A DNA stretch of 57,309 bases, taken from the NCBI GenBank assembly GCA_035389045.1, contig DAOORA010000022.1, forward strand, positions 1 through 57,309. The letters run 5' to 3'. A program made the position numbers and the translations under genes. The notes under the pieces were generated by a model. That model made no database searches. It was not told the DNA's origin and was given only the letters and a program-made list of their open reading frames with translations. This DNA is from Bacteroidales bacterium (GTDB lineage: Bacteria > Bacteroidota > Bacteroidia > Bacteroidales > CAIWKO01). Positions 3,818-40,538 of the stretch are shown in pieces (the stretch's first letter is position 1; each line of letters opens with the position of its first letter).

Positions 3818-3893
<76 letters not shown>

Positions 3894-7032: not shown

Positions 7033-7746
7033 TCAGAAAGGTGTTTTACAAAAATCAGAAAGGTACTTATCGGCAAATTCCCGGACACATCCCTGTCCAC
7101 CCCTGAGCGACAATATTATATTCACTTTTTCCCTTACCTGTTCTGCGGCATCGGCAGGACAGGCAGACAGCCCGACTTGGGTAATCACCGGAATATCATT
7201 AAGATCATCACCCAGGTAAGCCACATTTTTTAATGATATCCCCATCTCATCACACCATTTTTCAAGGATCTCCATTTTTTTCCAGGTTCCGATATATACT
7301 TTCTTTACGCCCAAAACATTTGCTCTGTGAGTTATGGTGTTATGCGTAAATCCCGAACTGAGAAAACCTACCTGGTAGCCGGCATTTATCAGGCTGATGA
7401 TCGCAAGTCCGTCTTTGGCATTGAACTTTTTGATCTCATCACCTGTTTCGGTATAGATTATTCCGCCGTCGGTCATCACCCCGTCGATGTCAAGAACCAG
7501 AAATTTGAAATCGAATGTTTTGACTACCTGTTCGACGATGGAGATATCTTCGGTCAGAAGTTTGTTCAGCGGATAATTCAAAAAACCGGAGATCTTTATA
7601 AGCTGTTCTGCATCAGGCAGGTTCTTCTTTGTCAGAAAATCATGGATATGGTTCTCTGCAATACCTGTCGCATCCGCCCACGTCCGGGCATCCATCTTTC
7701 GCTGAACGGACAGGTAGTTAAAGTTTTCTGAAAAAAAACACTTCAT
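7033..7746 (-). CDS. XRE-type HTH domain fused to a KdsC/YrbI-family HAD phosphatase
   Basis: N-terminal ~70 aa is HTH-like; DIDGVMTDG, KKFNAKDG, GDDLND, PADA and GGQGCVRE are KdsC motifs. Confidence 0.85.
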   Translation of the reverse strand: MKCFFSENFNYLSVQRKMDARTWADATGIAENHIHDFLTKKNLPDAEQLIKISGFLNYPLNKLLTEDISIVEQVVKTFDFKFLVLDIDGVMTDGGIIYTETGDEIKKFNAKDGLAIISLINAGYQVGFLSSGFTHNTITHRANVLGVKKVYIGTWKKMEILEKWCDEMGISLKNVAYLGDDLNDIPVITQVGLSACPADAAEQVREKVNIILSLRGGQGCVREFADKYLSDFCKTPF

Positions 7747-8741
7747 ATGATGGTGCGGTTAACAGCTTTTGCAATAGGTTTCAGGGTTTCGAACAATGCT
7801 GTGAATTGCTCATGGTTGAGTTGCTGTGAGGCATCCGAAAGCGCTGCAGCAGGATTGGGATGTACTTCTATCAGAAGGCCTTCAACACCCATGGCCATAC
7901 AGGCGCGGGCAAGGTCGGGAACGCCGTAAGCATATCCCATGGCATGGCTCGGGTCGAGGATCACAGGCAGGTTGGTGTTCTCTTTCAGATATGCCGCCCC
8001 GCAGAGATCTAAGGTAAAACGCGTCTTGGTTTCAAAAGTGCGTATCCCGCGTTCGCATAATATCACATTAGGATTACCGCCCGAAAGGATGAATTCGGCT
8101 GCCTGGACAAATTCCTGCAGGGTGGTTCCAAAACCCCGCTTGAGCAAAACGGGCTTTTGTGTTTTCCCGCATTTGCGCAATATTCCGTGGTCATACATCG
8201 ATTTGGCTCCGATCTGAATGACATCGGCATATTCAATTACGTCGTCAACATGAGTGGAGTCGCGTACTTCCGAAATTATGGTAAACCCATATTTCCGGCG
8301 GATATCGTCCAACAATTTCAGGCCATTGATGCCCAGCCCCTGAAACGTATAGGGCGAAGTTCTCGGTTTAAAACAACCGCCCCTGAGGGTTTTTAAGCCC
8401 ATCTGTCTGAGGAACCCGGCCGACTGATCGATCTGCTCTTCTGATTCTACCGAACAGGGGCCAATGGCAATCAGGACATTGCCGGAGTCTCCTCCGATGT
8501 AATTATCGCCGATCCTGACACTGCGCTTGCCATTGATATATTTTCTGCTTGCCAGCTGGATGTCGGAGTCGAAAACAAAGGATTCCGGGAAAAATTCCTT
8601 ATCGTCTTCCCCGGTCTTTTTCAAAGCCGACGGCGTGATCAGCACATTGTATTCGCTGGTTTTGAGAATGATAGCTTCGTATTTGGCAGCCAGCTGCTGC
8701 AACTTCTGCGGATCAAGATTTTTATCGGTATGGAGTATCAT
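7743..8741 (-). CDS. Type I-beta DAHP-synthase-like 3-deoxy-ulosonate phosphate synthase
   Basis: GPCSVE, GGCFKPRTSPY.FQGLG, QIGAKSM, LLKRG, CERGIRTFE, DPSHA, IEVHP, SDA. Confidence 0.9.
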   Translation of the reverse strand: MILHTDKNLDPQKLQQLAAKYEAIILKTSEYNVLITPSALKKTGEDDKEFFPESFVFDSDIQLASRKYINGKRSVRIGDNYIGGDSGNVLIAIGPCSVESEEQIDQSAGFLRQMGLKTLRGGCFKPRTSPYTFQGLGINGLKLLDDIRRKYGFTIISEVRDSTHVDDVIEYADVIQIGAKSMYDHGILRKCGKTQKPVLLKRGFGTTLQEFVQAAEFILSGGNPNVILCERGIRTFETKTRFTLDLCGAAYLKENTNLPVILDPSHAMGYAYGVPDLARACMAMGVEGLLIEVHPNPAAALSDASQQLNHEQFTALFETLKPIAKAVNRTII

Positions 8742-9745
8742 GATTCTCCCTGGATTAGATTATTAAATTTTATGGCGCCGGTGATTCGCTTCTGCCCGTC
8801 CACCACGGGTAAGAACAAGACGGGAAAGTTCAGGTTCTTGATGTAGGAAAGCACCTCTGCTACCGTTTCGTCTTCATAGATGTATGCAGGGTTGGTGTTG
8901 ATCATTTCGGAAACGTCGATATGGTTCAGATCGCTGATGTTTTTGATCAGGCCTTTACGGACATCGGCATTGGTGATGATGCCTAAAAGCAAACCGTCGT
9001 TGCCGGTAATGCTGGTAAACCCCATTTTATAGCGGTCGATGGACAATAATACGCGCTCAAAGGAAAGTTCATCTTCGTGTATCACAGGAATTTCGTCGTA
9101 TTCGAGCATGAAGTCGCAGATGCGGTAGTGCGAACTTACATCGTTGCTTTTTAGGTTCAGCATGGCCGAACCAATAAAAGAATTCTTAAAAAGGTACGAT
9201 CCGATCACGGCCGCATAAACACCCATGTTGCGCATGATGAACGACACTTCGGCATTGATGCCGCCATCAACATGTATCTTTTTTCCGGGGTATTTGCTTC
9301 TGAATTCCCTGATCTTTTTGAAATTCTGTTTGTTAAATTCCCCGCCGCTCATTCCCGGTGTGGTGGTCATAAACAAAATAAAACTGCAGCAATCCGCGTA
9401 CCGGTCAAAGGCCGAAATATCGGTATCGGAAGTAATGGCAAGGCCGGGTTCTGATTTTACAAAATCAGGGATCTGCAGACCATTTTTAAGATTCTCATAT
9501 TGAAAAGTTACATATTCGATCCGGTGTTTGGCAATCAGGTCGAAATATTTTTCGGGTTCCGGACTTATCAGGTGAAGATCGATGGGCGTTTTGCTCAGCA
9601 TGCGTATCTGTGCAATATCATCAAAAACCTTAGGATCGTCAAGGCAGTCGATATGAAAGAAATTAACATCATAGGCATCGAGTTCTTCAATAAGTTCGTT
9701 CAGGTTTTTTTCCTTATTGGAATATATGGATGCTGAAAATTTCAT
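8738..9745 (-). CDS. Divergent ribulose-phosphate 3-epimerase-like domain fused to a CBS pair
   Basis: HID..D, DLHL, LFM...PG..G, VDGGIN, GS.LF; C-terminal CBS pair (GIITNADVRK, LPVVD...TGAI). Confidence 0.85.
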   Translation of the reverse strand: MKFSASIYSNKEKNLNELIEELDAYDVNFFHIDCLDDPKVFDDIAQIRMLSKTPIDLHLISPEPEKYFDLIAKHRIEYVTFQYENLKNGLQIPDFVKSEPGLAITSDTDISAFDRYADCCSFILFMTTTPGMSGGEFNKQNFKKIREFRSKYPGKKIHVDGGINAEVSFIMRNMGVYAAVIGSYLFKNSFIGSAMLNLKSNDVSSHYRICDFMLEYDEIPVIHEDELSFERVLLSIDRYKMGFTSITGNDGLLLGIITNADVRKGLIKNISDLNHIDVSEMINTNPAYIYEDETVAEVLSYIKNLNFPVLFLPVVDGQKRITGAIKFNNLIQGES

Positions 9746-9766: not shown

Positions 9767-9810
9767 CAAAACTACAAACTTTTGGTCACAAAACATTATT
9801 TTTACCTTTG
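9767..9810. promoter_or_regulatory. Divergent Bacteroidota promoters for the rpe operon (-) and the MazG-like gene (+)
   Basis: CAAAACTA at 9767-9774 reads TAGTTTTG on minus; TACCTTTG at 9803-9810 on plus; both fit TAnnTTTG. Confidence 0.55.
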
Positions 9811-9835
9811 CGTATTTCTTATAAAACAATCAATT

Positions 9836-10162
9836 ATGACGATAGAACAAGCCCAGCAGAAGGTGGACGAGTGGATACAGACCACCGGCGTACGTTATTT
9901 CAGCGAACTCACCAATATGGCCATACTGACGGAAGAAGTCGGCGAAGTAGCCCGCATCATCTCCCGTACATACGGCGAACAATCTTTTAAAGATTCCGAC
10001 AAAGAGAAAAACCTTGCCGACGAACTCGCCGATGTGATGTTTGTCGTCATCTGCCTGGCTAATCAGACAGGCATAAACCTTACAGATGCCCTGGCGAAAA
10101 ACCTTGAGAAGAAAAGCGGACGTGATGCGGAAAGGCATAAAAACAATAGTAAACTTCAGTAG
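9836..10162 (+). CDS. MazG-like nucleotide pyrophosphohydrolase (YpjD type)
   Basis: LTEEVGEVAR and LADELADV motifs; ATG at 9836 follows the promoter. Confidence 0.9.
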   Translation: MTIEQAQQKVDEWIQTTGVRYFSELTNMAILTEEVGEVARIISRTYGEQSFKDSDKEKNLADELADVMFVVICLANQTGINLTDALAKNLEKKSGRDAERHKNNSKLQ

Positions 10163-10330: not shown

Positions 10331-10344
10331 CAGCGATTCATACG

Positions 10345-10428
10345 TACCCGAGGCCGGAATCGAACCGGCACGAGATTGCTCTCATTGGTTTTTGAGACCA
10401 ACGCGTCTACCTATTCCGCCACTCGGGC
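10345..10428 (-). tRNA. tRNA-Leu(CAA)
   Basis: Minus strand GCCCGAGTGGCGGAATAGGTAGACGC; anticodon arm TTGGT-CTCAAAA-ACCAA; long variable arm; GGTTCGATTCC; CCA not encoded; TACATTTG promoter element at 10459-10466. Confidence 0.96.
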
Positions 10429-11558: not shown

Positions 11559-14500
11559 TTAATGAATCAAACGGATCGTCTTATTTTGTGTTTTGTCAGT
11601 CCCTGTATATTCAAGCCTGAAAGTATACATCCCTGCAGGTAAACTCCCAGGTAAAAAAACAACTTCATGTCTTCCGCCGTTCCGTGTCTCGTTTATAATT
11701 TCTTGCACAAGTTCCCCGATCACATTATACACATCCATTTTGACCATTCCGTCTGCGGGGATGCTGTAAGTCAGGATTGCATCGCCGTCAAAGGGATTAG
11801 GATATCCGGTAAACTCAAAACCGGGTTCCGTGTTGTTCCCCTGAACAAATACCCTGGGCATCAGCAGGTAGGCATCTTCATTTTCCTGACCATACTGGTC
11901 GCCCATTACGCCTGTGCCCGACAATTCAAAATCAAGAGCGCCTTGTGTTGTGCTTTTGTAAGAGCGGAATCCCAAACGGATAATTTCATCATTGGCAGCC
12001 ACATCAAAATGATCCGTTGTGGCAAAGACCACGCGGATCACCCCGTCTTCATCGGTTACCAGTAAGTCATTATCTTCGGCTATGATCTCTTCCAGTGTCT
12101 GATTGATCTTTACAAAACCGTTCTTGTTACTTTCTTTTGACATGGATGCACTTACCAGGCTGAATGTTTCATCCGGGTAGTTTAATTCAAGGCCCAGGGC
12201 TGAAAAATCATTCATTTTTGTGCTGATGCGCAACGGAATTTCAAAATAGTCCGGATTTCCGGTAGTGACGTATTCATCAGAAACGGCTATGATATTTTCC
12301 GGCAGCGATTTGGCCATACCCCAGTTTATCAGGGAATCGCGGTATTTGCTGCTTGAGGCATTATAGTCGCCATAGCAGATCGTCTTCAGCGCAATATTCA
12401 GATTGCCTCCTGCCACTGTAACAGAGGTGTCAAGCGCCACCCAGTTTCCCCCCGGAAAATTTTTCTGAACGCTGTACGGCGAGCCGATCTTTGCCTTTAT
12501 CCTCGAAATATCAATGGCATTGATCGCCAAATTATTATCTGCATTGGCCGCCTTCCTGTATTTCGGATAAAAATTCCTGGACGGATCCATCGTAGTGTCT
12601 GACCCGATATAATACTTCATTATTGACACGTCAATAGCATCTACGGCATTTCCCCATTGCATGCTATCAACCGTGTATTTGTCATACGACAAAATGTATG
12701 CGCCATCAACAACATTTGTGAACTGATAATCTCCGAGCGCGTCGCTTGTATCACAGGCGATAACCGTTCCCGAAGGATAGTTCTTCAGTGTCACTATGAC
12801 ATTATCAATGTTGTATATCACAGAATTATAGGTCGGCGGATTGGGTGCGGGGCTGCCGTTATTGGCTTTTCCCAGGTAACGGGTCTTGCCGCTGATGGTA
12901 TATCCTCCTCCGCAATTGCTGATGGTAACTGTACGTATCACCTGTGGCGATGGCCCCCCGCAACCGTAGGCAAACACTCTGATATCCACTGTTCCATAAA
13001 AACCAATGGCCCATGTCATCTCACCGGTCAGGGAATCAATACTGCCGGCAGCTGGGTTGCTTATTGACCAGTGAAATCCGGAGTTGTTCATCGCTGTTGT
13101 CTGATAGACCGTTGTGGTGGTATCATTGTCAGGCGGACAGACAGGTTCCGTGCCTGATGATACGGTTATCGGCGTGGGCGTTGTTACCCACGGGATTACG
13201 GTTACGTTAAACACCGAAGTATTAATGGAGCCACAGGGATTACTGGTCACCGAACAATAGAAGCCGTTACTTGTGCTCATTATTCCCGGGTTGTAGGTAC
13301 TGTTGGTCGCTCCGTTAATTAATCCGGAGGATGTCCTGTGCCATTGATACGCATAAACCCCCGAACCTCCTGAAGCAGCAGCAGTAAATGTGCCCGGGCT
13401 GGATTTGTCGCATATCGGAGATGTGCCCCCGCTGGTGGATGCTATCAGATCGGAATAGACCGAAACATTTATTGTATCAGAATATATTGTGCCACAGGAA
13501 CCCGTGACAACACAATAAAATTCCGCACCTGAAATCATGTTTCCCGGATCATATGTGCTATCAGTTGCATTATTTATAATACTTGAAGGCGTTGTATACC
13601 ATTGATAGGAATAAATGCCGGTTCCTCCCGTCAGTGTTGCGGTAAAAACTCCGGGGCTTGAGCCATAACATACCGGTGATGTTCCTCCGGTAATACCGGC
13701 CGCAGCATTGTTAATAACGGTAACAGATTTTGTTGCTGTATTTACACAACCACCTGCCGTAGTCACAGCATAGGCAATAAGAGATGTTCCTGCTGATACC
13801 CCTGTCACCAGGCCTGTTGTCGGATCTATTGTTGCAATCCCCGGCACTGTGCTTGTCCATGCGCCGCTGCTGGTCGTGCTGGTCCATAGGTCTGTTGAGC
13901 CGGAACACAGTATGGTGTCGCCGGTGATGGTCTGAATTACAGGAGCCGTTATCGAAATAGTTTGCGTCGCAGTATTTACGCACCCTCCGGTTGTAGTCAC
14001 GGCATAGGCAATAAGAGATGTGCCTGCGGATACCCCCGTCACCTGGCCTGTTCCCGTATCTATTGCGGCAACACCCGGATTTCCGCTGGCCCAGATACCA
14101 CCAGCCGTGGTTGCAGACCATATATCCGTTAATCCGGCACATAACGGCGTGACTCCTGTTATGGCCTGTGCAACAGGAGCCATTATTGTCACCGTTTTTG
14201 TGGCGGTATTGGAACATCCGCCTATTGTCACAGAATACGTTATTCTTGATGTTCCTGCAGACACACCTGTAACCAGGCCCGTACCGGCATTTACTGCAGC
14301 AACTCCCGGTATTCCGCTATACCAGGTACCGCCGCTACTGGTACTGGCCCAGGGCGCTGTTGATCCGATACACAAGGGCGTTTGCCCTGTTATCGTTTGC
14401 GATGTCGGTATATTTACAGTTACGGTTCGGGTAGCTGTATTTACGCAAACACCTCCTGTGGTCACCGAATAGGTGATCAGGGACGTCCCCTGTGAAACAC

Positions 14501-17195
14501 CTGTGAGCAGGCCGGTACTTACATTTATCGACGCCACTCCGGGATTACTGCTGGTCCAGCTGCCGCCACCGCTGGTAGCTGACCACACTGCTGAATTTCC
14601 TGTACATAATGGATTTGTACCATAAATTGTCTGTGGAACAGGTAAAGATACAGTCACTGATTTTGAACTAACGGCAGCACAACCATCGGTGCTGGTAACC
14701 GTAAGCATATAGGTGCCACCGGCAGTAATATGAATACTTTGAGTGGTTGCGCCGGTAGACCACAAGTAGTTATAATAAATCGGGGCTGTTGACGGTACTA
14801 CCCATGCAGGAGTGTTGATCAAAATACCGCTGTTTGCAGGAGCGGCAGAATTCACAGAGCTTGCTCCGGCTCCTTCATTCAACCGGAAATAAGCCGTAAG
14901 CCCTGCCGAATTATAGGCGACTTCCGAATTCATTGAGGCCAGGATATCGACCTGTGCTTTGGCAGTGTCCCAAACCCGCACTTCATCAATAAGTCCAACA
15001 AAATTTTCAGCCATCATCATATAGTGGGTTCCGATGACTGCACCTCCGGGTTCGCCGGTATAAAGTCCGCTTTGTGCTGTTGTAACAGTATCGGGATTGC
15101 CATTGACAAAAATTTTCCGCACAGAACCATCATGGGTAATAGCAATATGGGACCATTGGTTTACGGGAACATCAAGGCTTCCTGTAAATTCACTGTAGCC
15201 ACCGCCGGCATCTTTCGAGCCATATAAAACCTTGCCATTCCTTATTTGAAGAAGGTATTGATGGTTGCCTTTAAAAAAAACATTTCTGTTACTGTTAATG
15301 TCAGTGGGATAAACCCATGCTTCCACCGTTAACTGACTAACATTCAAACCACTGTAATTCGGAATGGCAACATACCGTAAATTTCCGTCAAACGCCAGGG
15401 CATTGCCTCCGGACGCACAAATCAGGTTAACTGAACCGCCCGAGCAGAAGGAGGTCGGCCCGTCAGCGCTGATGGCGGGATTCGGAGTAAAAAGTGTTGT
15501 CAGTATTGCAGAATCGCTTTTCAGCGTATTACAGCCATCGGTCACAACACAGCGGAATAGATATCCGTTCATAGTTGAACCGGCAGTAATATTGAGTGTG
15601 CTGGTTTTAGTACCCGTATATGGTGCGCCTTCTGTGAGGTTTGTAAAAACATTTCCGCTGTCTGTGCTTCGCTGCCATTGATAATCGGAAACTCCGGTGC
15701 CTGTAATACCAAACTGCACAATGCTTCCGGAACATACGTTTTGCCGGTCAACGGGCTGTGATGACAGTGCCAGTAACGGTTTTAATTTTAAAACATAAGT
15801 ATCATATTGTCCTGATGAGGTAAGATTGCTGACGCCTGCACCGGGGTCAAAATCAACGGTTCCGGTAAAAACTCCCATGTTGAAAATATTCCCGGAAGGA
15901 TCCAAAGCCAGGGAATTGCCAATATCATTGGTAGCGCTGCCCATGCTTAATGCCCACACAAAATTGCCGGAAGCATTAAGTTTTGAGATAAAAATATCCC
16001 AGCTGCCTGATGAAGTAATATTAAAAGTGCCTGTACCGGGGTCAAAATCCGAAGTCTGAGCGAAATACCCCGTAGTATAAACATTATCAGAGCAGTCTAA
16101 GGCCAGAGAATACCCACGTTCACCTGAAGTCCCGCCCATCCTTTTAGCCCAAAGGAAGTTCCCATACGTATCCAGTTTTAATACATAAATATCTTCATTC
16201 CCTGCTGATGTAAGAGAATATGATCCCGGGCCGGGATTAAAGTCAACGGTCTGGCCAAAACATCCAGTTGAATAAACGTTTCCCGACAGGTCAACAGCTA
16301 TTGATTCGCCATAATCTCCTGATAATCCGCCGACTTTTTTTGCCCACAGAAAGTTTCCTGAAGAATCGAGTTTCGAAATAAAAATATCAGAATAAGCCGA
16401 CGCAGTAAGATAATAGCTTGTTAATGTGTCCGGATCAAAGTCTGCCGTGCCTTCAAAATACCCGGTTGTATAAACATTGCCTGACACATCAACAGCTAAT
16501 GAATTTCCATAATCACGCATAGAGCCTCCCAATCTTTTAGCCCATAGAAAGTTGCCATAAGTGTCCAGTTTTAAGACAAATACATCCAGGCTGTCTGATG
16601 TGAGGTTATAGGTTCCGGCGCCCGGATCAAAGTCTGCCGTACCCTGAAAGAATCCTGTGGTATAACTATTGCCGGAAGAGTCAATTGTTAATGACATTCC
16701 ATAAGCAGGCAAAGACTCCCCAATGTTAACAGCCCAAAGAAAATTGCCCGAAGAGTCCAGTTTTGAAATAAAAATATCGTAACCTCCCACCGAAGTCAGG
16801 TTAAAAGTGTCCGGACCCGGATCAAAGTCCCCTGTTCCGTAAAAATATCCTGTCGAATAAACGTTGCCGGATTTGTCAACCGCCACAGATGTCCCATAAT
16901 CCAGGTTCGTTCCACCCATTCTGACAGCCCAGCAGAAGTTGCCGGAAACATTCAACTTTGAAATATACACATCATTTATTCCGGCTGAAATCAGATTAAA
17001 TATCCCTGTGCCGGGATCAAAATCTGAAGTTCCGGAGAAATAGCCGCAAGTATAAACATTACCCGGCTGATCAACAATGATGGATTGTCCATGATCAACG
17101 GAACTACCCCCTAATTTTTTTGCCCATTCATAATCCTGAGCTGATGATTCTATACAAAGGATTATCAGTGTAAAGATAAAGATGATTTTTCTCAT
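11559..17195 (-). CDS. Large T9SS surface protein: SBBP beta-propeller repeats, Ig, LamG, Big_2-like repeats, dockerin/cohesin-like module, type A CTD
   Basis: ~7 repeats of 'D.SGNVYTTGYF.GT.DFDPG...D.FISKLD.SGN.LWA'; LamG TVEAWV/WSHIA/IDEVRVW; repeated 'W.S.NPGVA.I...TG.VTGVSAGT'; YPNPF...GMY CTD. Confidence 0.85.
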   Translation of the reverse strand: MRKIIFIFTLIILCIESSAQDYEWAKKLGGSSVDHGQSIIVDQPGNVYTCGYFSGTSDFDPGTGIFNLISAGINDVYISKLNVSGNFCWAVRMGGTNLDYGTSVAVDKSGNVYSTGYFYGTGDFDPGPDTFNLTSVGGYDIFISKLDSSGNFLWAVNIGESLPAYGMSLTIDSSGNSYTTGFFQGTADFDPGAGTYNLTSDSLDVFVLKLDTYGNFLWAKRLGGSMRDYGNSLAVDVSGNVYTTGYFEGTADFDPDTLTSYYLTASAYSDIFISKLDSSGNFLWAKKVGGLSGDYGESIAVDLSGNVYSTGCFGQTVDFNPGPGSYSLTSAGNEDIYVLKLDTYGNFLWAKRMGGTSGERGYSLALDCSDNVYTTGYFAQTSDFDPGTGTFNITSSGSWDIFISKLNASGNFVWALSMGSATNDIGNSLALDPSGNIFNMGVFTGTVDFDPGAGVSNLTSSGQYDTYVLKLKPLLALSSQPVDRQNVCSGSIVQFGITGTGVSDYQWQRSTDSGNVFTNLTEGAPYTGTKTSTLNITAGSTMNGYLFRCVVTDGCNTLKSDSAILTTLFTPNPAISADGPTSFCSGGSVNLICASGGNALAFDGNLRYVAIPNYSGLNVSQLTVEAWVYPTDINSNRNVFFKGNHQYLLQIRNGKVLYGSKDAGGGYSEFTGSLDVPVNQWSHIAITHDGSVRKIFVNGNPDTVTTAQSGLYTGEPGGAVIGTHYMMMAENFVGLIDEVRVWDTAKAQVDILASMNSEVAYNSAGLTAYFRLNEGAGASSVNSAAPANSGILINTPAWVVPSTAPIYYNYLWSTGATTQSIHITAGGTYMLTVTSTDGCAAVSSKSVTVSLPVPQTIYGTNPLCTGNSAVWSATSGGGSWTSSNPGVASINVSTGLLTGVSQGTSLITYSVTTGGVCVNTATRTVTVNIPTSQTITGQTPLCIGSTAPWASTSSGGTWYSGIPGVAAVNAGTGLVTGVSAGTSRITYSVTIGGCSNTATKTVTIMAPVAQAITGVTPLCAGLTDIWSATTAGGIWASGNPGVAAIDTGTGQVTGVSAGTSLIAYAVTTTGGCVNTATQTISITAPVIQTITGDTILCSGSTDLWTSTTSSGAWTSTVPGIATIDPTTGLVTGVSAGTSLIAYAVTTAGGCVNTATKSVTVINNAAAGITGGTSPVCYGSSPGVFTATLTGGTGIYSYQWYTTPSSIINNATDSTYDPGNMISGAEFYCVVTGSCGTIYSDTINVSVYSDLIASTSGGTSPICDKSSPGTFTAAASGGSGVYAYQWHRTSSGLINGATNSTYNPGIMSTSNGFYCSVTSNPCGSINTSVFNVTVIPWVTTPTPITVSSGTEPVCPPDNDTTTTVYQTTAMNNSGFHWSISNPAAGSIDSLTGEMTWAIGFYGTVDIRVFAYGCGGPSPQVIRTVTISNCGGGYTISGKTRYLGKANNGSPAPNPPTYNSVIYNIDNVIVTLKNYPSGTVIACDTSDALGDYQFTNVVDGAYILSYDKYTVDSMQWGNAVDAIDVSIMKYYIGSDTTMDPSRNFYPKYRKAANADNNLAINAIDISRIKAKIGSPYSVQKNFPGGNWVALDTSVTVAGGNLNIALKTICYGDYNASSSKYRDSLINWGMAKSLPENIIAVSDEYVTTGNPDYFEIPLRISTKMNDFSALGLELNYPDETFSLVSASMSKESNKNGFVKINQTLEEIIAEDNDLLVTDEDGVIRVVFATTDHFDVAANDEIIRLGFRSYKSTTQGALDFELSGTGVMGDQYGQENEDAYLLMPRVFVQGNNTEPGFEFTGYPNPFDGDAILTYSIPADGMVKMDVYNVIGELVQEIINETRNGGRHEVVFLPGSLPAGMYTFRLEYTGTDKTQNKTIRLIH

Positions 17196-17597
17196 ATTTT
17201 ATTCAGAAATGTTTTCAAACGGAGAAACAATTTGCTGCCGGGTATTCCAATTCTGCTTTAAAAGTCATTATAAAACAGGATATCACGTTAGCCGATGATG
17301 AATCCTGCCGGATAAATACCCATAAATTTAACAAAACGATTTGTCTGAAGAAGTGTAAATAATAGTAATTTCATATGCTAACAAATTTATAGACAATCTT
17401 GTTCTTGACAAAGCATTATTAATTTACGAAGATAACAAAAAACACTAAATTTTCTAAGAAATTAACAATATTATGGTGAATGAGAAGCTTCACTTTCAGG
17501 CAATTTCTTTTTTTGATGTGCTGGTAGAAAAAATAACTACTCAAAGTCATCAGAAAATTACATATTTTCTTTTAAACACTACTTTTAGAAAAAGACT

Positions 17598-18296: not shown

Positions 18297-21047
18297 TTAA
18301 TGAATCAAACGGATCGTCTTATTTTGCGTTTTGTCAGTCCCTGTAAATTCAAGCCTGAAAGTATACATCCCTGCAGGTAAACTCCCAGGTGAAAAAACAA
18401 CTTCATGTCTTCCGCCGTTCCGTGTCTCGTTTATAAGTTCTTGCACAAGTTCCCCGATCGCATTATACACATCAATTTTGACCATTCCGTCTGCGGGGAT
18501 GCGGTATGTCAGGATTGCATCGCCGCCAAAGGGATTAGGATATCCGGTAAACTCAAAACCGGGTTCTGTGTTGTTTCCCAGAACAAATACCCTGGGCATC
18601 AACAGGTAGGCATCTTCATTTTCTTGACCATACTGGTCGCCCATCACGCCTGTGCCCGACAGTTCAAAATCAAGAGCGCCTTGCACTGATCCTCGGTGAG
18701 AGCGGAAGCCCAGGCGGATAATTTCATCATTGGCAGCAACATCAAAATGATCCGTTGTTGCAAATACCACGCGGATCACCCCGTCTTCATCGGTGACCAG
18801 TAAGTCATTATCCTCAGCTATGATCTCTTCCAATGTCGGATTGATCTTTACATAACCGTTCTTGTTACTTCCTTTTGACATGGATGCACTTACCAGGCTG
18901 AATGTTTCAACCGGGTAGTTTAATTCAAGGCCCAGGGCTGAAAAATCATTCATTTTAGTGCTGATGCGCAACGGAATTTCAAAATAGTCCGGAGTGCCGG
19001 TAGTAATGTACTCATCAGAAACGGCTATGATATTTTCCGGCAGCGATTTGGCCATACCCCAGTTTATCAGGGAATCGCGGTATTTGCTGCTTGAGGCATT
19101 ATAGTCGCCATAGCAGATCGTCTTCAGCGCAATATTCAGATTGCCTCCTGCCACTGTAACAGAGGTGTCAAGCGCCACCCAGTTTCCTTTCGGAAAATTC
19201 TTCGTAACATTGTATGGCGCCCCGATCTTGGCTTTTGTCCTCGAAATATCGATAGCATTGATCGACGTATTATTGTCTACATTGGCCGCCTTCCGGTATT
19301 TCGGATAGAAATTTCTTGACGGGTCTATGGTTGTGTCGCATCCGATGTAATATTTCATTATGGCCACGTCAATGGCGTCCACAGCATTTCCCCATTGCAT
19401 GGTGTCAACCGTGTATTTATCATACGACAAAATGTAAGTGCCATTAGTGACATTTGTGAACTGATAAACGCCGAGGGCGTCGCTGGTATCCCGTGCTACC
19501 TCGGTTCCGGAAGGATAATTCTTAAGTATCACAATAACATTATCAATATTATAAATCACTGAGTTATAGGTCGGCGGATTGGGTGCGGGGGTACCGTTAT
19601 TGGCTTTCCCAAGATAACGTGTCTTGCCGCTGATATTATATCCGATACCGGTAACCGTGACGGTAACAACATCAGTAGCGGTACAACCACTGTTGTTGAC
19701 AGATAATGTATATGTTGTAGTAACCGTTGGTGATGCCAGGGGCTGGGCGAGGGTTGTATCGTTTAAGCCTGCAGAAGGAATCCATGTTATAACTCCCGGG
19801 CCATTGCCTGAATTGCCGATTTGTACCGGTGTGCCGGAGTAAGTAACATTAGGTCCGGCTTCTGCTACGGGTATAACATTAACCGTGGCGGTAGCAGCAT
19901 TTGTCGTTACAGAACCACCTTCATTGGTAACAATACACTGGTACTGACATCCGTTGATCAGCAGGGTGACGCCCGAAATGGTCAGGGTGTTGGTCGTTGT
20001 GCCTGAGTATGTGCCATTATTCGATAAATTTTGCCATCCGCTTCCGCAGTTTTCCTGCCACTGATAGGTCAGGCCCATTCCGGTAGCAAACAAATTAAAG
20101 ATCATGCTCCCACCCACACAGGCAATAGCAGGTCCGGGATGCTTGACTATTACCGGGGGAGGGTAAGTTCTGACAATAAAGCGGGATGCAGAAGAAGAAA
20201 AATTGGTAATGCCTGTTGACAAATGATACCAGTCTGTAGCGGGTAAATTGTTGACAGATCCGGGTATTCCTGAGACAGGCGACCATGTGCCGCCTACATT
20301 ATGCCATATTAGAGCGGCTGAGTTAACAAATGATGTCCCCTGATCTTGTGTGTTCCATCCCAGATTTAATGAGGCCGTTGTTCCTCCGGTCACATTCTCA
20401 TTGATCACCCATGTTTTTTGAACACAGGTCGGATCGCTCCCTGTGGTGGGATTCACACCTTTTTCAACTCTTACAGCAAAAGTGTCCGTTGTGCCGGTAT
20501 AATTTAAAATAGCCGGCTTATAACTGTTCAGTGTATCTCCAACCGGGAATAAAAAACCGGTGGCTGTCGGGAGCGATTTTTTTATCAGACTGCCTGTACC
20601 GTTGGTTACTACAAACCGGGAATTATCCGCATTTATAACATTTGCATTAGGTAATAACGAAAGGTTATAATTTGAAATAAGGATTTTATTTGCGTTTAGG
20701 ACAAGCGAATCCGCAACAGATGAATGTACTGAAATCGTTTTATTTCCGGTTCCTGTAATGATCAGGTTATTGAATACCGTTGAACTCGTACCGCCGATAT
20801 CCTGTGCCGCCCCGTTGAGAGAAACACTGCTCACTGATCCGGAAGCAAAAGAAGCGTTGTTCACAAAATTACCTGAAACATATAGATCTCCGTTATTCTG
20901 AACACTGCCTCCTGCATCATTGGTAAAAAAAGATCCGCAGACGACAAAAGCCCCCGGATTTATTTTTATGTAGGCCTTGTTGGTTATTTGCCCGAGGGCC
21001 AGGCCTCCCGATATGATTAAGATTAAAAAAAACAATGATCTTTTCAT
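18297..21047 (-). CDS. T9SS surface protein with beta-rich N-terminus and Ig domains; shares its C-terminal ~445 aa with the 1878 aa protein
   Basis: Signal peptide; 'LTYQWQ...YSGTTTNTLTI' Ig domain; C-terminus near-identical from ISGKTRYLGKANNG to KTIRLIH. Confidence 0.85.
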   Translation of the reverse strand: MKRSLFFLILIISGGLALGQITNKAYIKINPGAFVVCGSFFTNDAGGSVQNNGDLYVSGNFVNNASFASGSVSSVSLNGAAQDIGGTSSTVFNNLIITGTGNKTISVHSSVADSLVLNANKILISNYNLSLLPNANVINADNSRFVVTNGTGSLIKKSLPTATGFLFPVGDTLNSYKPAILNYTGTTDTFAVRVEKGVNPTTGSDPTCVQKTWVINENVTGGTTASLNLGWNTQDQGTSFVNSAALIWHNVGGTWSPVSGIPGSVNNLPATDWYHLSTGITNFSSSASRFIVRTYPPPVIVKHPGPAIACVGGSMIFNLFATGMGLTYQWQENCGSGWQNLSNNGTYSGTTTNTLTISGVTLLINGCQYQCIVTNEGGSVTTNAATATVNVIPVAEAGPNVTYSGTPVQIGNSGNGPGVITWIPSAGLNDTTLAQPLASPTVTTTYTLSVNNSGCTATDVVTVTVTGIGYNISGKTRYLGKANNGTPAPNPPTYNSVIYNIDNVIVILKNYPSGTEVARDTSDALGVYQFTNVTNGTYILSYDKYTVDTMQWGNAVDAIDVAIMKYYIGCDTTIDPSRNFYPKYRKAANVDNNTSINAIDISRTKAKIGAPYNVTKNFPKGNWVALDTSVTVAGGNLNIALKTICYGDYNASSSKYRDSLINWGMAKSLPENIIAVSDEYITTGTPDYFEIPLRISTKMNDFSALGLELNYPVETFSLVSASMSKGSNKNGYVKINPTLEEIIAEDNDLLVTDEDGVIRVVFATTDHFDVAANDEIIRLGFRSHRGSVQGALDFELSGTGVMGDQYGQENEDAYLLMPRVFVLGNNTEPGFEFTGYPNPFGGDAILTYRIPADGMVKIDVYNAIGELVQELINETRNGGRHEVVFSPGSLPAGMYTFRLEFTGTDKTQNKTIRLIH

Positions 21048-21088
21048 GACCTGAATTATTTAAGGTTCATAGATTTTTTACCAATTTT

Positions 21089-23846
21089 TTAGTCTTTAAC
21101 TTTGATCAATGATTTCAATTCGTCGATCTGTTGTTGCAGATCTTTGATCTTTGTCTGCTGTTCCTGAATTAATTTTTGCTGCTCCTGTGCGGCCTTTACC
21201 AAAGGAACAACAAAATCAGAGTAGGTAAGGCCGTAAAGATCATTATCATGTTTTGGTTTTTTCACACCACTGAAATCGTACCCGCATTCTTTGGCGGCTT
21301 GTTCAACCTCCTGGGCAATAAACCCGCTGAACGTTATCTTTTCAATATCATATTTTCCATCATATTCACTCTTATCCTTTTTATTCAGAATTTTATCCTG
21401 TTTGTCCTTATCAATATTAAAAGTGACGGGGCGTAATTTCATAATAAAATCCAAACCGGACACATCTTCTTTAACATTGTTCTTTACCCTGCCGTCTGAT
21501 AATGTTGACCATCCTACTTGTCCACCGATTTGAGTCACTGCTGTATTTCCAACCCTGACATAATTTGTAGCGGTCGCCGTTGCGCCATTGCCCAAAGCCA
21601 TTGCGTTGTTGTAAGTTCCTCCTGAACTAAAATCAGCATCATAGCCTAAAAATGTACAATAAGTATAGGTTGGCCCGCTCACTCCGGCACCGGCAGCCCA
21701 GCCAACAGCCGTATTATAACCGCCCTTGTTCTGATACAATGAATAATATCCAACGCTGGTATTTCCTATCGCTGATGTTGCATTTTGCAATGCCCAGTAA
21801 CCGATGGCAATATTTTGAGAACCAGTGGTATTGGTATAAAGCGCTCTTGTTCCCAATGCAACATTATCGTAACCGTTGATGTTTGCAACAAGAGCTTCTT
21901 GTCCAACCGCAATATTATTGTATCCCGTAGTGTTTGCCTGTCCGCTGTTGGCACCCAAAAAAACATTGTAATTATTCGTGTGGTCATCATTTTCTCCTGC
22001 CAAATTGCCAATAAATACAGAATAACCTGTATTAATAGGTTTTATTTGTCCTTTGGTCGTTATTCTGAACCGTTCCATATTATTGGTTCTGATCGTGAAT
22101 TCCTGGGCATCGGTGGTTCCAATGAAATTTGTGGAGGGATTTGTTCCTGCATTGCCTGTCAGTGACCAATAGTTTCCGGTGCCACCCGCAGGCGCCTGCC
22201 ATGTGGCGTTACCAATGGCGTCAGAAGTGAGTACATAACCCGCAGCAGGGGTTCCGGCCCCTGTCAGTCTGACGGAACCCGTGGTGTGAAGCTGGGCGGC
22301 AGGCGCCGTTGTACCTATCCCCACACTGCCGGAGCTGGTAATAGTTACAGCTCCTGCTGCCGGCGCATAATTCCATCCTAACTGTATGGTCTGATCTATT
22401 GAGTTAACCACATAGTTTCCGATGGCCAGAGCATCTATTCCGGAAACCTGATTATATAACCCGAACGCGTGGCCACCCGTAGAAGAAGTAATATCATTAC
22501 AAACACCAATCGCAGTGCTGAAAACTGTTGATGAACTTGTTGAATTATCATAACCCAGAACTGTATTACCTCTGCCTCCGAAAATATCACTAGAGCCTCC
22601 TATAGCAACATTGGCACCCCACGATCCCGTTGGCACCACGACGGTATTACTATGGCCTATATTGGCCGTTCTTCCTTCAACATGTAAAACAGCATCGGGT
22701 GTTGAGGTTCCAATGCCTACATTGCCAGTGCTTAATACACGAATTCTCTCTGTGTTGCTTGTCCTTACAACAAAATCCTGGGCATCGGTGGTTCCTATGA
22801 AATTAGTGGAGGGGTTTGTGCCCGCGTTGCCCAACAGCAACCATTCGTCTCCTCCTGAAACTTGCGGATTCTGCCAGGTGGCATTGCCGCTGGCATCAGA
22901 AGTAAGAACCCGTCCCACGGCCGGAATACCTGCACCTGAAAAGGTAACAGATCCTGTGGTATGTAACTGAGAAACCGGAGCCGTGGTTCCTATTCCGACA
23001 TTCCCATCACTGGTAAGGGTCATGAGTCCGGGGGCGTCAGAATTGTTCCACCCTATTTGTATGGTCTGATCGATAGAATTAACAACCCTGTTGCCAATAG
23101 CAAAGGCATCCAATCCTGAAACCTGATTATATAGCCCGAACGCATGACCACCCGTAGAAGAAGTAATATCATTAACAACACCAACCGCAGTGCTGAAAAC
23201 TGTTGATGAACTTGTTGAATTATCATAACCCAGAACGGTATTACCTCTGCCTCCGAAAATATCACTAGAGCCTCCTATAGCAACATTGGCACCATATTGT
23301 GCAGTCGGAAAAATCACGGTGTTATATTGTCCGATGTTGGCCGTTCTGCCTGAAACATGTAACACAGCATCAGGAGTTGAGGTTCCTATGCCGACATCGC
23401 CGGTGCTTAATACACGAATTTCTTTCTGTATTGCTTGTTCTTACAACAAAATCCTGAGTATCGGTGGTGCCAATAAAATTGGTCGCGGGATTTGTTCCTG
23501 CATTGCCCAGAAGCGCCCAGTCGTTACTTATTCCGGCGCCCGTCATAAAACGTACCCAAGCGGACCCGTTCCAGAAATAGTATCCCGGTGTCACATCATT
23601 TTGGGTTGCCGTATTGTATACCAGCAAACTGACCGCCGGAGACGTAACCGGTGCGGCAACAGTTGTAGAAGTAAGCGCCAGCCGGGGAATAAGAAGTCCC
23701 GATGTTAAACTTGAAACGTCTAACATCGCACTGGGATCCGCTGCACTACCGGTACTATTTATGGCAACATTTTGCTGAGCCTGAATGCCTGTAAATGCAA
23801 ACACAAAAAATAAACTGAAAAGTAGAAATGTTTTTTTCATAGTCAT
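21089..23846 (-). pseudogene. Secreted trimeric fibre/adhesin-like protein with a Peptidase_S74 chaperone domain, split by a +1 frameshift at ~23420
   Basis: ORFs 23370-23846 and 21089-23365 fuse to ~918 aa if one base is removed; YadA-like N.A.G repeats; 'GNVGIGT..P' repeats; SDGRVKNN...LRPVTF plus coiled coil. Confidence 0.8.
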
Positions 23847-39290: not shown

Positions 39291-40538
39291 ATGAAAAAAA
39301 TTCATTTTGTTTTAATCACAGGCGTATTCGTCATGGCAGCCTTAGTTGCCTGCAAATCCTCTAAGAAAAAAATGGACAACAACTCAGGCACCTCCACAGA
39401 AAACACAACGCCGGTCAACATCACTGAAAGCAATAATTTATTTGCGCTCGATCTTTATAAAAAGATTGGTGATAAACCGGAAAATCTTTTTTATTCACCG
39501 TACAGCATTTCTACGGCCCTGGCCATGACTTACACCGGTGCGCGCGGAAAAACTGAAAAAGAAATGAGCACGGTGATGCACTTTCCAGCAAACAGCGAGG
39601 TGTTTTATAGTAAATATAACGAATCTCTTAAAGATATCGGTGGCTTGAGCGACGGAAGCGCCAACACCATTTATAATGCAAATTCTATCTGGGCTCAGAA
39701 GAATTTTAAATTCTCTGAAGAATTTCTGAACGTGATAAAAAACAGTTTTAATTCGTCGGTCAATCTGGTTGATTTCATAAATGAAACCGAAAAAAGCCGT
39801 GTACAGATCAATAAATGGGTGGATGGACAGACCCACGAAAAGATCAAAGACCTGATACAGCCCGGACTTATTGACTACCTGACAAGACTGGTGCTGGTCA
39901 ATGCCATTTATTTTAAAGCTAACTGGGATACGGCATTTGACGAAAAACTGACTCAAAAACTGGATTTTCATGTTGACGAAACAACAGCAGTACCCTGTAA
40001 TTTCATGGTTGCTGATCACAAATACAACTTTTACGAACAGGAAGACGGACTCAAAGCCATTGAAATACCTTATTCGAAAGGGAAATTGTCAATGCTGATC
40101 ATCTTACCCAAAGACAACGCGGGTTTTAACACACTGAAAAAGAACCTGACGCCCGATCTTTATAAAAAAATCATCGCCGGACTGACTGCCAAAAAGGTAA
40201 AACTGTTTCTTCCAAAGTTTAAGACCACATCGGAATTTGAATTAAGCGACATGCTCAAGCAGATGGGTATGCCTCTTGCATTTTCCGACAAGGCAGATTT
40301 TTCGGGCATGACCGGCGCCAAAGATCTAAAGATAAGCAAGGTCATTCATAAGGCTTTTGTTGAGGTGAATGAATCCGGAACCGAAGCCGCCGCCGCTACT
40401 GCCGTGGTGATGCGCATAAAGTCCATGCCGATGAAACAGCCGGAATTCAAAGCCGACCATCCGTTTATGTTTTTCATCAAGGAAAACAAAAACAACAGCA
40501 TCCTGTTTGCAGGAAATATTTACAACCCGACCAAATAA
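39291..40538 (+). CDS. Serpin lipoprotein
   Basis: Lipobox LVAC; SPYSI, LVNAIYFK; hinge EVNESGTEAAAAT; FKADHPF. Confidence 0.93.
   Translation: MKKIHFVLITGVFVMAALVACKSSKKKMDNNSGTSTENTTPVNITESNNLFALDLYKKIGDKPENLFYSPYSISTALAMTYTGARGKTEKEMSTVMHFPANSEVFYSKYNESLKDIGGLSDGSANTIYNANSIWAQKNFKFSEEFLNVIKNSFNSSVNLVDFINETEKSRVQINKWVDGQTHEKIKDLIQPGLIDYLTRLVLVNAIYFKANWDTAFDEKLTQKLDFHVDETTAVPCNFMVADHKYNFYEQEDGLKAIEIPYSKGKLSMLIILPKDNAGFNTLKKNLTPDLYKKIIAGLTAKKVKLFLPKFKTTSEFELSDMLKQMGMPLAFSDKADFSGMTGAKDLKISKVIHKAFVEVNESGTEAAAATAVVMRIKSMPMKQPEFKADHPFMFFIKENKNNSILFAGNIYNPTK

Follow-up and report, generated by a model that had tools for sequence, protein, structure and literature searches.

Kdo (3-deoxy-D-manno-octulosonate) is the essential sugar acid that links lipid A to the rest of lipopolysaccharide (LPS). 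The route to it through KdsD and KdsA is regarded as essential and almost universal among Gram-negative bacteria, and both enzymes serve as targets for antibiotics. Here we analyze a 57,309-nucleotide stretch, called the window below, of a Bacteroidales bacterium (CAIWKO01; contig DAOORA010000022.1 of assembly GCA_035389045.1). [quoted passage not shown] Why does a bacterium keep these three genes together, and which sugar do they make? Our analysis indicates that the trio replaces KdsD and KdsA in organisms that have lost both genes. The trio appears to be a Kdo-type pathway built from different enzymes, and we found no paper that describes it.

The trio appears to take the place of KdsD and KdsA

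The host assembly (96.3% complete, 135 contigs) has several gaps. SYN is its only member of PF00793, there is no kdsA, and the genome contains neither a type II DAHP synthase (DAHPS) nor a SIS-type KdsD, the matches to the KdsD model TIGR00393 being confined to CBS parts. It has kdsB, waaA, a second, short kdsC, an ordinary rpe, aroB and aroC; PF02348 has a single match, i.e., there is no second cytidylyltransferase. A first-pass annotation of the window had recognized a look-alike of the Kdo pathway rather than a shikimate operon, and this view is supported. It had also proposed a parallel pathway, to be checked by looking for separate rpe, aroF and kdsA/C/D genes elsewhere in the genome. The separate rpe and the second kdsC do exist, but aroF, kdsA and kdsD were not found, and the parallel pathway has to be given up.

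The absence of kdsA and kdsD recurs in other genomes with the trio. Among 41 Bacteroidales genomes, including the host, Rpe-CBS (called at E <1e-100) is present in 25, namely in all 23 members of the host family and in G031 and G035. SIS-type KdsD is found in none of these 25 genomes and in 14 of the 16 without the trio; KdsA, a PF00793 gene of about 270 amino acids, is found in 0/25 and 15/16, respectively, and all 15 copies, one of them truncated, score above a Kdo-8-phosphate synthase equivalog cut-off. A 271-amino-acid candidate KdsA in G019 was rejected, being really the trio synthase cut by the end of a contig, with the HTH-phosphatase gene after it. When 300 further genomes were drawn from the whole phylum, Rpe-CBS turned up in 3, all of them Bacteroidota genomes that are 100% complete (one is closed) and in which SYN adjoins Rpe-CBS while a KdsA-sized gene and KdsD are absent; KdsD is present in three control genomes. 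A different situation was seen in G028 (2.2 Mb, 100% complete, same order as the host), which is without KdsA, KdsD, the trio and KdsB, has a KdsC-family match and a gene of the DAHPS-chorismate mutase type, and may make no Kdo at all.

In a second phylum, we compared 41 gammaproteobacterial genomes around Thiohalophilus thiocyanatoxydans DSM 16326, nine of which have Rpe-CBS. KdsA above the cut-off is present in 0/9 genomes with the trio versus 29/32 without it, and KdsD in 1/9 (G365) versus 30/32. Five gammaproteobacterial trio genomes have an AroG-type DAHPS (about 283 to 332 bits) beside SYN and no KdsD. The missing kdsA and kdsD are a pattern and not an assembly gap, and because the mutual exclusion of the trio and kdsA/kdsD holds in both phyla, we read the trio as a replacement and not as a parallel pathway.

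The chromosomal position of the trio leads to the same view. In E. coli, the standard gene order is yrbG-kdsD-kdsC-lptCAB-rpoN. A 45-kb contig of G365 (locus L127) reads Ca/Na antiporter, then phosphatase, SYN and Rpe-CBS on the other strand, then kdsC, lptC, lptB and rpoN, while a 2.7-kb contig of the same genome (L126) reads antiporter, kdsD, kdsC and lptC. Taken together, the two contigs show the trio in the place of kdsD, and in the gammaproteobacteria it sits exactly in the kdsD slot. In locus L048, the genes ptsN, hpf, rpoN, lptB, lptA, lptC, kdsC (217 bits, above the cut-off of the E. coli-type equivalog) and kdsB lie on one strand, with the trio divergent from them and followed by a Ca/Na antiporter gene and mlaA, and in T. 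thiocyanatoxydans (L037), a heptosyltransferase-like gene and kdsB come after the trio. Hence, the linkage to kdsB or a glycosyltransferase gene that the first-pass annotation had suggested looking for exists in the gammaproteobacteria, in addition to that with kdsC-lptCAB. As the G365 contigs are two versions of one locus, the smaller one probably comes from another strain or was misbinned, and we did not accept the co-occurrence of trio and KdsD in G365 as evidence that SYN uses arabinose-5-phosphate, the kdsD in question lying on a 2.7-kb contig that duplicates the trio-bearing locus. The pair of contigs from one metagenome-assembled genome provides a natural "before and after" view of a single locus.

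The arrangement of the three genes is conserved far beyond chance. A scan with one genome per species identified at least 477 stretches with an Rpe-CBS relative, and we examined the best 80 loci. SYN lies directly downstream of Rpe-CBS in 78 of these and the contig ends in the other 2. The full order is kept in 71/80; seven of the remaining nine lie at a contig edge, and two (L084 and L088) have DNA without a KdsC-type match at this position. Thirteen of the 80 loci belong to Gammaproteobacteria, including the cultured T. thiocyanatoxydans DSM 16326, and the conserved order is found in both Bacteroidota and Gammaproteobacteria.

Domain make-up of the three proteins

The N-terminal part of Rpe-CBS (residues 1 to 200; 9146..9745, minus strand) is a ribulose-phosphate-binding barrel, and its C-terminal part (residues ~205 to 335 plus the stop codon; 8738..9133, minus strand) is a pair of CBS domains. 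The protein matches PF00834 (Ribul_P_3_epim; E 1e-25) and CBS but remains below the rpe equivalog TIGR01163 (83 bits versus a cut-off of 212.6), and its PF00834 score is 92 bits compared with 242 bits for the ordinary rpe product encoded elsewhere in the same genome. Rpe-CBS shares with Rpe and AlsE the PF00834 barrel, the His-x-Asp, His and Asp residues for metal binding and acid/base catalysis, and the Gly-rich phosphate loops. Residues H31, D33, H58 and D160 are invariant in 6/6 orthologues and align with 2FLI; in the Streptococcus pyogenes enzyme, the corresponding residues form the His/Asp/His/Asp metal site, with the two aspartates as catalytic residues. In contrast to Rpe and AlsE, Rpe-CBS has lost six residues from the loop that follows the second strand and the catalytic Asp, and has Gln in place of His in TxHxE (TFQYE, residues 80 to 84), MSGG in place of FGGQ (MTTTPGMSGG, residues 126 to 135) and the fused CBS pair. 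The first-pass annotation had named TFQYE, MTTTPGMSGG and, in SYN, KPRTS, and all three motifs are there.

The CBS pair is what Rpe-CBS has in common with KdsD, KpsF and GutQ, whose SIS catalytic domain it lacks. Its best NCBIfam matches are to the CBS region of these proteins, and TIGR00393 aligns over model positions 157 to 267 only, i.e., the CBS part (E 5.6e-8; 1.6e-13 for the L048 orthologue). Databases call the 1672 relatives of Rpe-CBS (E up to 1e-20) "ribulose-phosphate 3-epimerase," "CBS domain-containing protein" or "hypothetical protein."

SYN has the length and the two-domain layout of a Thermotoga-type DAHPS. An extra N-terminal domain without a Pfam match (residues 1 to 75; 8517..8741, minus strand) stands in place of the regulatory domain and is followed by the catalytic barrel of the DAHPS/Kdo-8-phosphate synthase family (7743..8516, minus strand); in the L048 orthologue, the alignment with NF006421 spans 1 to 330. 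SYN passes the DAHPS models NF006421 (361 bits, cut-off 335) and TIGR01361 (320 bits, cut-off 268). Its best solved relatives are the type I-beta enzymes of Thermotoga maritima (1RZM), Pyrococcus furiosus (1ZCO) and Aeropyrum pernix (1VS1), with 249 to 267 bits and an identity in the barrel of about 55 to 60% as read off the alignments. They have in common with SYN the motif KPRTS (residues 125 to 129; 8355-8369, minus strand), the PEP-binding Lys/Arg (PEP, phosphoenolpyruvate) and the Cys/His/Glu/Asp metal site, which maps to C96, H266, E292 and D303 through the alignment to 1ZCO. The loop after the His ligand is as long as in DAHP synthases, and the KANRS motif is absent. SYN differs from the I-beta enzymes in its genomic context, which is LPS and not trp/aro.

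Within the barrel, SYN carries changes of its own, among them the clade-specific segments QIGAKSMYDH (8187-8216, minus strand) and DPSHAMGYAYGV (7920-7955, minus strand). GARN is replaced by GAK(S/A), (M)QNF by MYDH, and G(R/K)R..V, in the loop behind the His metal ligand, by AMGYAYGV. These changes are common to 80 trio-linked SYN sequences, all of which retain KPRTS, the four metal ligands and whatever else marks the aldose site as DAHPS-type, and they are found in 0/4 of the trp-linked copies, the closest relatives outside the trio, which are two-domain DAHP synthases encoded by the last gene of the trp operon in several Bacteroidota (L017:6066-7082, L018:6176-7183, L101:3506-4516 and L102:3066-4223). 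The Arg of GARN binds the phosphate of PEP in the E. coli enzyme. Among 150 representatives of a 50%-identity library, the changes occur only in SYN-type sequences; the Lys is also present in a divergent outlier, P0022, and apart from P0022, all non-SYN representatives with a recognizable motif keep the Arg. A tree of 202 sequences unites those of the Lys type in a single clade of 86 (support 1.0), outside of which lies P0022, where the Lys is present and the loop motif is not. The 13 gammaproteobacterial SYN sequences are a clade (support 1.0) nested among those of Bacteroidota in this tree, which has a midpoint root only, and this nesting suggests a transfer of the cassette between phyla. 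One member of the library (P0002, 521 amino acids) is a natural fusion of SYN with a KdsC-like HAD domain.

The third gene product combines an XRE-type helix-turn-helix (HTH) domain (residues 1 to 70; 7537..7746, minus strand), present in most Bacteroidota orthologues and absent from the gammaproteobacterial ones, with a KdsC-type HAD domain (residues ~80 to 237 plus the stop codon; 7033..7509, minus strand) in which the DxDG, GDD..D and Lys motifs are kept. HTH_3 is weak in the window's protein (E 0.003), and 17 of 30 long-form orthologues match it, the best with an E-value of 3.9e-12. The phosphatase shares the catalytic Asp pair, the Lys and GDD..D with E. coli KdsC and the KDN-9-P phosphatase BT1713 of Bacteroides thetaiotaomicron, and D86, D88, K157, D180 and D184 are invariant in 35/35 sequences. 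It passes the KdsC subfamily model TIGR01670 (136 bits, cut-off 107) but misses both equivalogs, KdsC NF007019 with 127 bits versus 208 and KDN-9-P phosphatase with 139 versus 180, whereas the ordinary KdsC proteins of L048, L126 and L127 reach 210 to 224 bits with NF007019. Unlike the two ordinary KdsC proteins aligned, it has no C-terminal tail, and it coexists with an ordinary KdsC. Separately, KdsC-family domains were noticed inside frames of 383 to 386 amino acids in G027 (C1:16280-16735) and G030 (C128:26838-27290), which are probably fusions with another enzyme.

The product of the trio

The canonical CMP-Kdo pathway (KdsD, KdsA, KdsC and KdsB; CMP, cytidine monophosphate) and the trio follow the same order, with a CBS-paired sugar-phosphate enzyme, a PEP-dependent aldolase of PF00793 and a HAD phosphatase of the KdsC family; KdsB and WaaA are ordinary in the host, and in the gammaproteobacteria, the chromosomal place of kdsD near kdsC-lptCAB is shared. 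The trio differs from it by having an Rpe barrel for the SIS domain of KdsD, a synthase on the DAHPS I-beta branch with KPRTS for KANRS, and a phosphatase that is tailless and often HTH-bearing. We infer all substrates and products of the trio, the chemistry of its epimerase and the dual role of SYN discussed below.

On balance, we favor Kdo itself as the product, made through a replacement of the first steps of its synthesis. Rpe-CBS would supply the aldose phosphate, most likely arabinose-5-phosphate, by a metal-assisted two-base 2-epimerization of ribose-5-phosphate, the aldose analogue of the 3-epimerization that Rpe and AlsE perform on ketoses, and this step would be regulated through the KdsD-like CBS pair. 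For an Rpe-type site with two opposed bases, this appears to be the chemically simplest route, and the pair ribose-5-phosphate/arabinose-5-phosphate would correspond to allulose-6-phosphate/fructose-6-phosphate, the AlsE pair, minus C1. SYN, from a clade derived from type I-beta DAHPS, would then condense arabinose-5-phosphate and PEP to Kdo-8-phosphate, the linked KdsC-type phosphatase would free Kdo, and the ordinary KdsB and WaaA would use it for LPS. The DAHPS of P. furiosus reportedly accepts 5-carbon aldose phosphates, including arabinose-5-phosphate, with a poor Km.

What favors Kdo itself is that genomes with the trio show no change in KdsB or in the ordinary KdsC; if nonorthologous enzymes take over while the metabolite stays the same, KdsB, WaaA and LPS transport need not change. 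KdsB scores from trio and non-trio genomes are 211 to 235 and 189 to 246 bits in Bacteroidales, where two truncated trio copies were omitted, and 293 to 308 and 249 to 309 bits in gammaproteobacteria. In an alignment of 58 KdsB proteins (11 + 12 from trio genomes and 14 + 21 from non-trio genomes), the non-trio proteins have 55 conserved columns. Both trio groups retain 45 of these, the remaining 10 deviate in a single lineage, and nowhere do the two trio groups share a residue that is rare elsewhere. The columns were compared blind, as the passages of PMC3149649 consulted name no KdsB residues that touch C7/C8 of Kdo. An intact ordinary KdsC is present in 24/25 trio genomes, with 117 to 142 bits versus 114 to 146 in non-trio genomes.

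Several points weigh against Kdo. By every family signature, SYN classifies as a DAHP synthase and not as a Kdo-8-phosphate synthase. It fails the models of the latter, with 113 bits versus 314 for TIGR01362 and 120 versus 242 for NF003543, and Kdo-8-phosphate synthases use a longer loop after the metal-binding His for arabinose-5-phosphate, which SYN does not have. We know of no DAHPS-type enzyme that serves as a Kdo-8-phosphate synthase in vivo and of no Rpe-family enzyme that makes an aldose phosphate, and to our knowledge, all arabinose-5-phosphate isomerases have the SIS fold. E. coli KdsB is known to tolerate Kdo modified at C8, so the unchanged KdsB is a weak argument with which a shorter sugar is still compatible. 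If Kdo-8-phosphate is the substrate of both KdsC-type phosphatases, it is hard to see why a genome keeps two, and a 7-carbon product does not explain this either. Our literature search found no enzyme assay or LPS composition for any trio-bearing organism, and nothing relevant on the trio pathway, on an Rpe-CBS enzyme for arabinose-5-phosphate, on genomes without kdsA and kdsD or on a tetrose-phosphate epimerase.

The first-pass annotation had inferred a 7-carbon sugar from KPRTS alone. As a replacement for Kdo, such a route would run from erythrose-4-phosphate to D-threose-4-phosphate by Rpe-CBS and, with PEP, to 3-deoxy-D-lyxo-heptulosonate-7-phosphate by SYN, and the phosphatase would free a sugar that takes the place of Kdo in LPS. 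We consider this unlikely. The enzyme signatures favor it: SYN keeps KPRTS and the DAHPS-type aldose site, Rpe-CBS keeps the metal and base residues of Rpe, and the trio has a phosphatase of its own that is distinct from the ordinary KdsC, being tailless and slightly closer to the KDN-9-P phosphatase model than to the KdsC equivalog. In the host genus, where SYN is the sole DAHPS candidate, it would still have to accept a tetrose phosphate. Erythrose-4-phosphate and threose-4-phosphate would correspond to ribulose-5-phosphate and xylulose-5-phosphate minus C1, so that erythrose-4-phosphate could fit the Rpe site with an equal spacing between the phosphate and the reacting carbon, and, as derived from the sugar names, 3-deoxy-D-lyxo-heptulosonate has the configuration of Kdo at C4, C5 and C6. 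However, the route would require that an essential, near-universal LPS sugar was swapped in hundreds of species without a visible change in KdsB, and that the ordinary KdsC was kept intact though left without a substrate. Three SYN loops near the active site are changed, which seems more than a C2 epimer of equal length would need. No LPS is known to carry a 7-carbon ulosonate where Kdo joins lipid A. For the statement that EC 5.1.3.1 enzymes interconvert erythrose-4-phosphate and threose-4-phosphate, given as known by the first-pass annotation, our search returned no paper in which Rpe epimerizes a tetrose phosphate. The unchanged KdsB and intact KdsC lean to Kdo, and the 7-carbon product becomes a minority reading.

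[quoted passage not shown] Two plant reviews list the synthesis of Dha as unknown (PMC3355719; PMC12168206), in agreement with the first-pass annotation, and in this respect they speak for the 7-carbon route. It would also mean that hundreds of Bacteroidota and some sulfur-oxidizing Gammaproteobacteria build their LPS on 3-deoxy-D-lyxo-heptulosonate and not on Kdo, which we regard as doubtful.

Less probable still is that the trio makes another ulosonate or two products, for example a C8 epimer from another pentose phosphate or Kdo-8-phosphate together with a second sugar phosphate, each phosphatase then having its own substrate. This would agree with the remodeled active-site loops of SYN, with the separate subfamily formed by the trio phosphatase and with the two KdsC-family genes found in 24/25 trio genomes, compared with one in 13/16 non-trio genomes. 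The host genome, however, has only the one cytidylyltransferase gene, and the proposal adds an assumption without direct evidence. Finally, SYN could be a housekeeping DAHPS with two accessory genes, Kdo coming from unidentified enzymes or from uptake, and the score of SYN above the NF006421 cut-off, its trp-linked nearest relatives and its standing as the sole DAHPS of the genus are in line with this, but outside the genus, most genomes with the trio have a DAHPS besides SYN, of the AroG type or fused to chorismate mutase, so SYN is not needed there for aromatics, and the coincidence in two phyla between presence of the trio and loss of kdsA and kdsD, the trio's position in the kdsD slot and the SYN-phosphatase fusion in one natural protein make it highly improbable.

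SYN as the only DAHPS relative of its genus

SYN is the sole PF00793 gene in 18/18 genomes of the host genus, and chorismate synthase is present in all 15 tested. Being the only DAHPS-family enzyme there, SYN probably still makes DAHP from erythrose-4-phosphate for the shikimate pathway and would thus be a dual-purpose synthase. Such a dual role fits the conserved KPRTS and would hold whether the product is Kdo or the 7-carbon sugar.

In sister genera, DAHPS is present as a fusion with chorismate mutase. A tblastn search of the host genome with two such fusions returned only SYN and a separate CM_2 domain. The latter belongs to a 292-amino-acid ORF just downstream of the ordinary rpe (G000:C24:39187-40062; L002:472-1350, minus strand), with a type II chorismate mutase at residues 208 to 280. 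It was rejected as a DAHPS-chorismate mutase, as its N-terminal 200 residues match no Pfam family nor the DAHPS part of the sister-genus fusions; the protein may be a remnant of or a substitute for the fusion in this genus. In another genome of the genus (G010, contig C38), kdsB (11856-12566) lies about 2.3 kb upstream of the trio (14865-17550), while kdsB of the host is on another contig.

Implications

There are thus whole lineages without KdsD and KdsA that have another enzyme pair in the same chromosomal slot. NCBI family models would name SYN a DAHP synthase, and with misleading database names of this kind, metabolic reconstructions wrongly miss a step of LPS synthesis and wrongly gain one more shikimate enzyme. 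To enzymologists, the trio would offer a second, independent shift of DAHPS toward an LPS sugar and to a possible new reaction for the Rpe fold, and in the host genus, one synthase may feed both aromatic amino acids and LPS. Because T. thiocyanatoxydans DSM 16326 is a cultured carrier that is not a pathogen, the question of the product is directly testable.

Expression signals and other features of the window

The layout described by the first-pass annotation, with ATGA overlaps at both junctions, is confirmed by the ORFs and the sequence: the overlaps lie at 8738-8741 and 7743-7746, where the plus strand reads TCAT. As to the proposed shared TAnnTTTG promoter, a candidate Bacteroidota-type -7 box, TAGTTTTG (9767..9774, minus strand), is present 22 nucleotides upstream of the Rpe-CBS ATG and is the sole minus-strand TAnnTTTG match in or just upstream of the trio. 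Across the window the motif occurs 61 times, where shuffles lead one to expect 63 +/- 7, and with a count at chance level, the box carries little weight alone; its position is compatible with a promoter and proves nothing. At the other end of the operon, an AT-rich hairpin after the last stop codon folds no better than shuffled sequences (z -0.67), and a terminator consensus scan gave nothing. Three activated-sludge metatranscriptome runs from three studies contain identical short contigs that cover parts of all three genes. None of them bridges a gene junction by 31 letters and carry-over of DNA is possible, and for these reasons we do not claim that the trio is transcribed.

As the first-pass annotation had stated, no other shikimate gene is nearby. 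A Pfam scan of 36 of the 37 nonoverlapping window ORFs of at least 100 amino acids (an ORF of 1878 amino acids was left out) detected no shikimate or LPS gene outside the trio. A small MazG-type pyrophosphohydrolase gene (9782-10162, plus strand) is divergent from the trio and is followed by a tRNA-Leu(CAA) gene (10344-10428, minus strand); a second tRNA gene, Thr(CGT), lies at 3818-3893. The 1878-amino-acid ORF, rich in short internal repeats, and ORFs of 916 and 758 amino acids come next (11559-17195 and 18297-23365, both minus strand); the 916-amino-acid product has no Pfam match, and the 758-amino-acid product has an endosialidase-chaperone (Peptidase_S74) domain. Farther away, the window encodes a full-length serpin (39291-40538, plus strand; PF00079, E 2.6e-120), and several other window proteins carry type IX secretion sorting domains.

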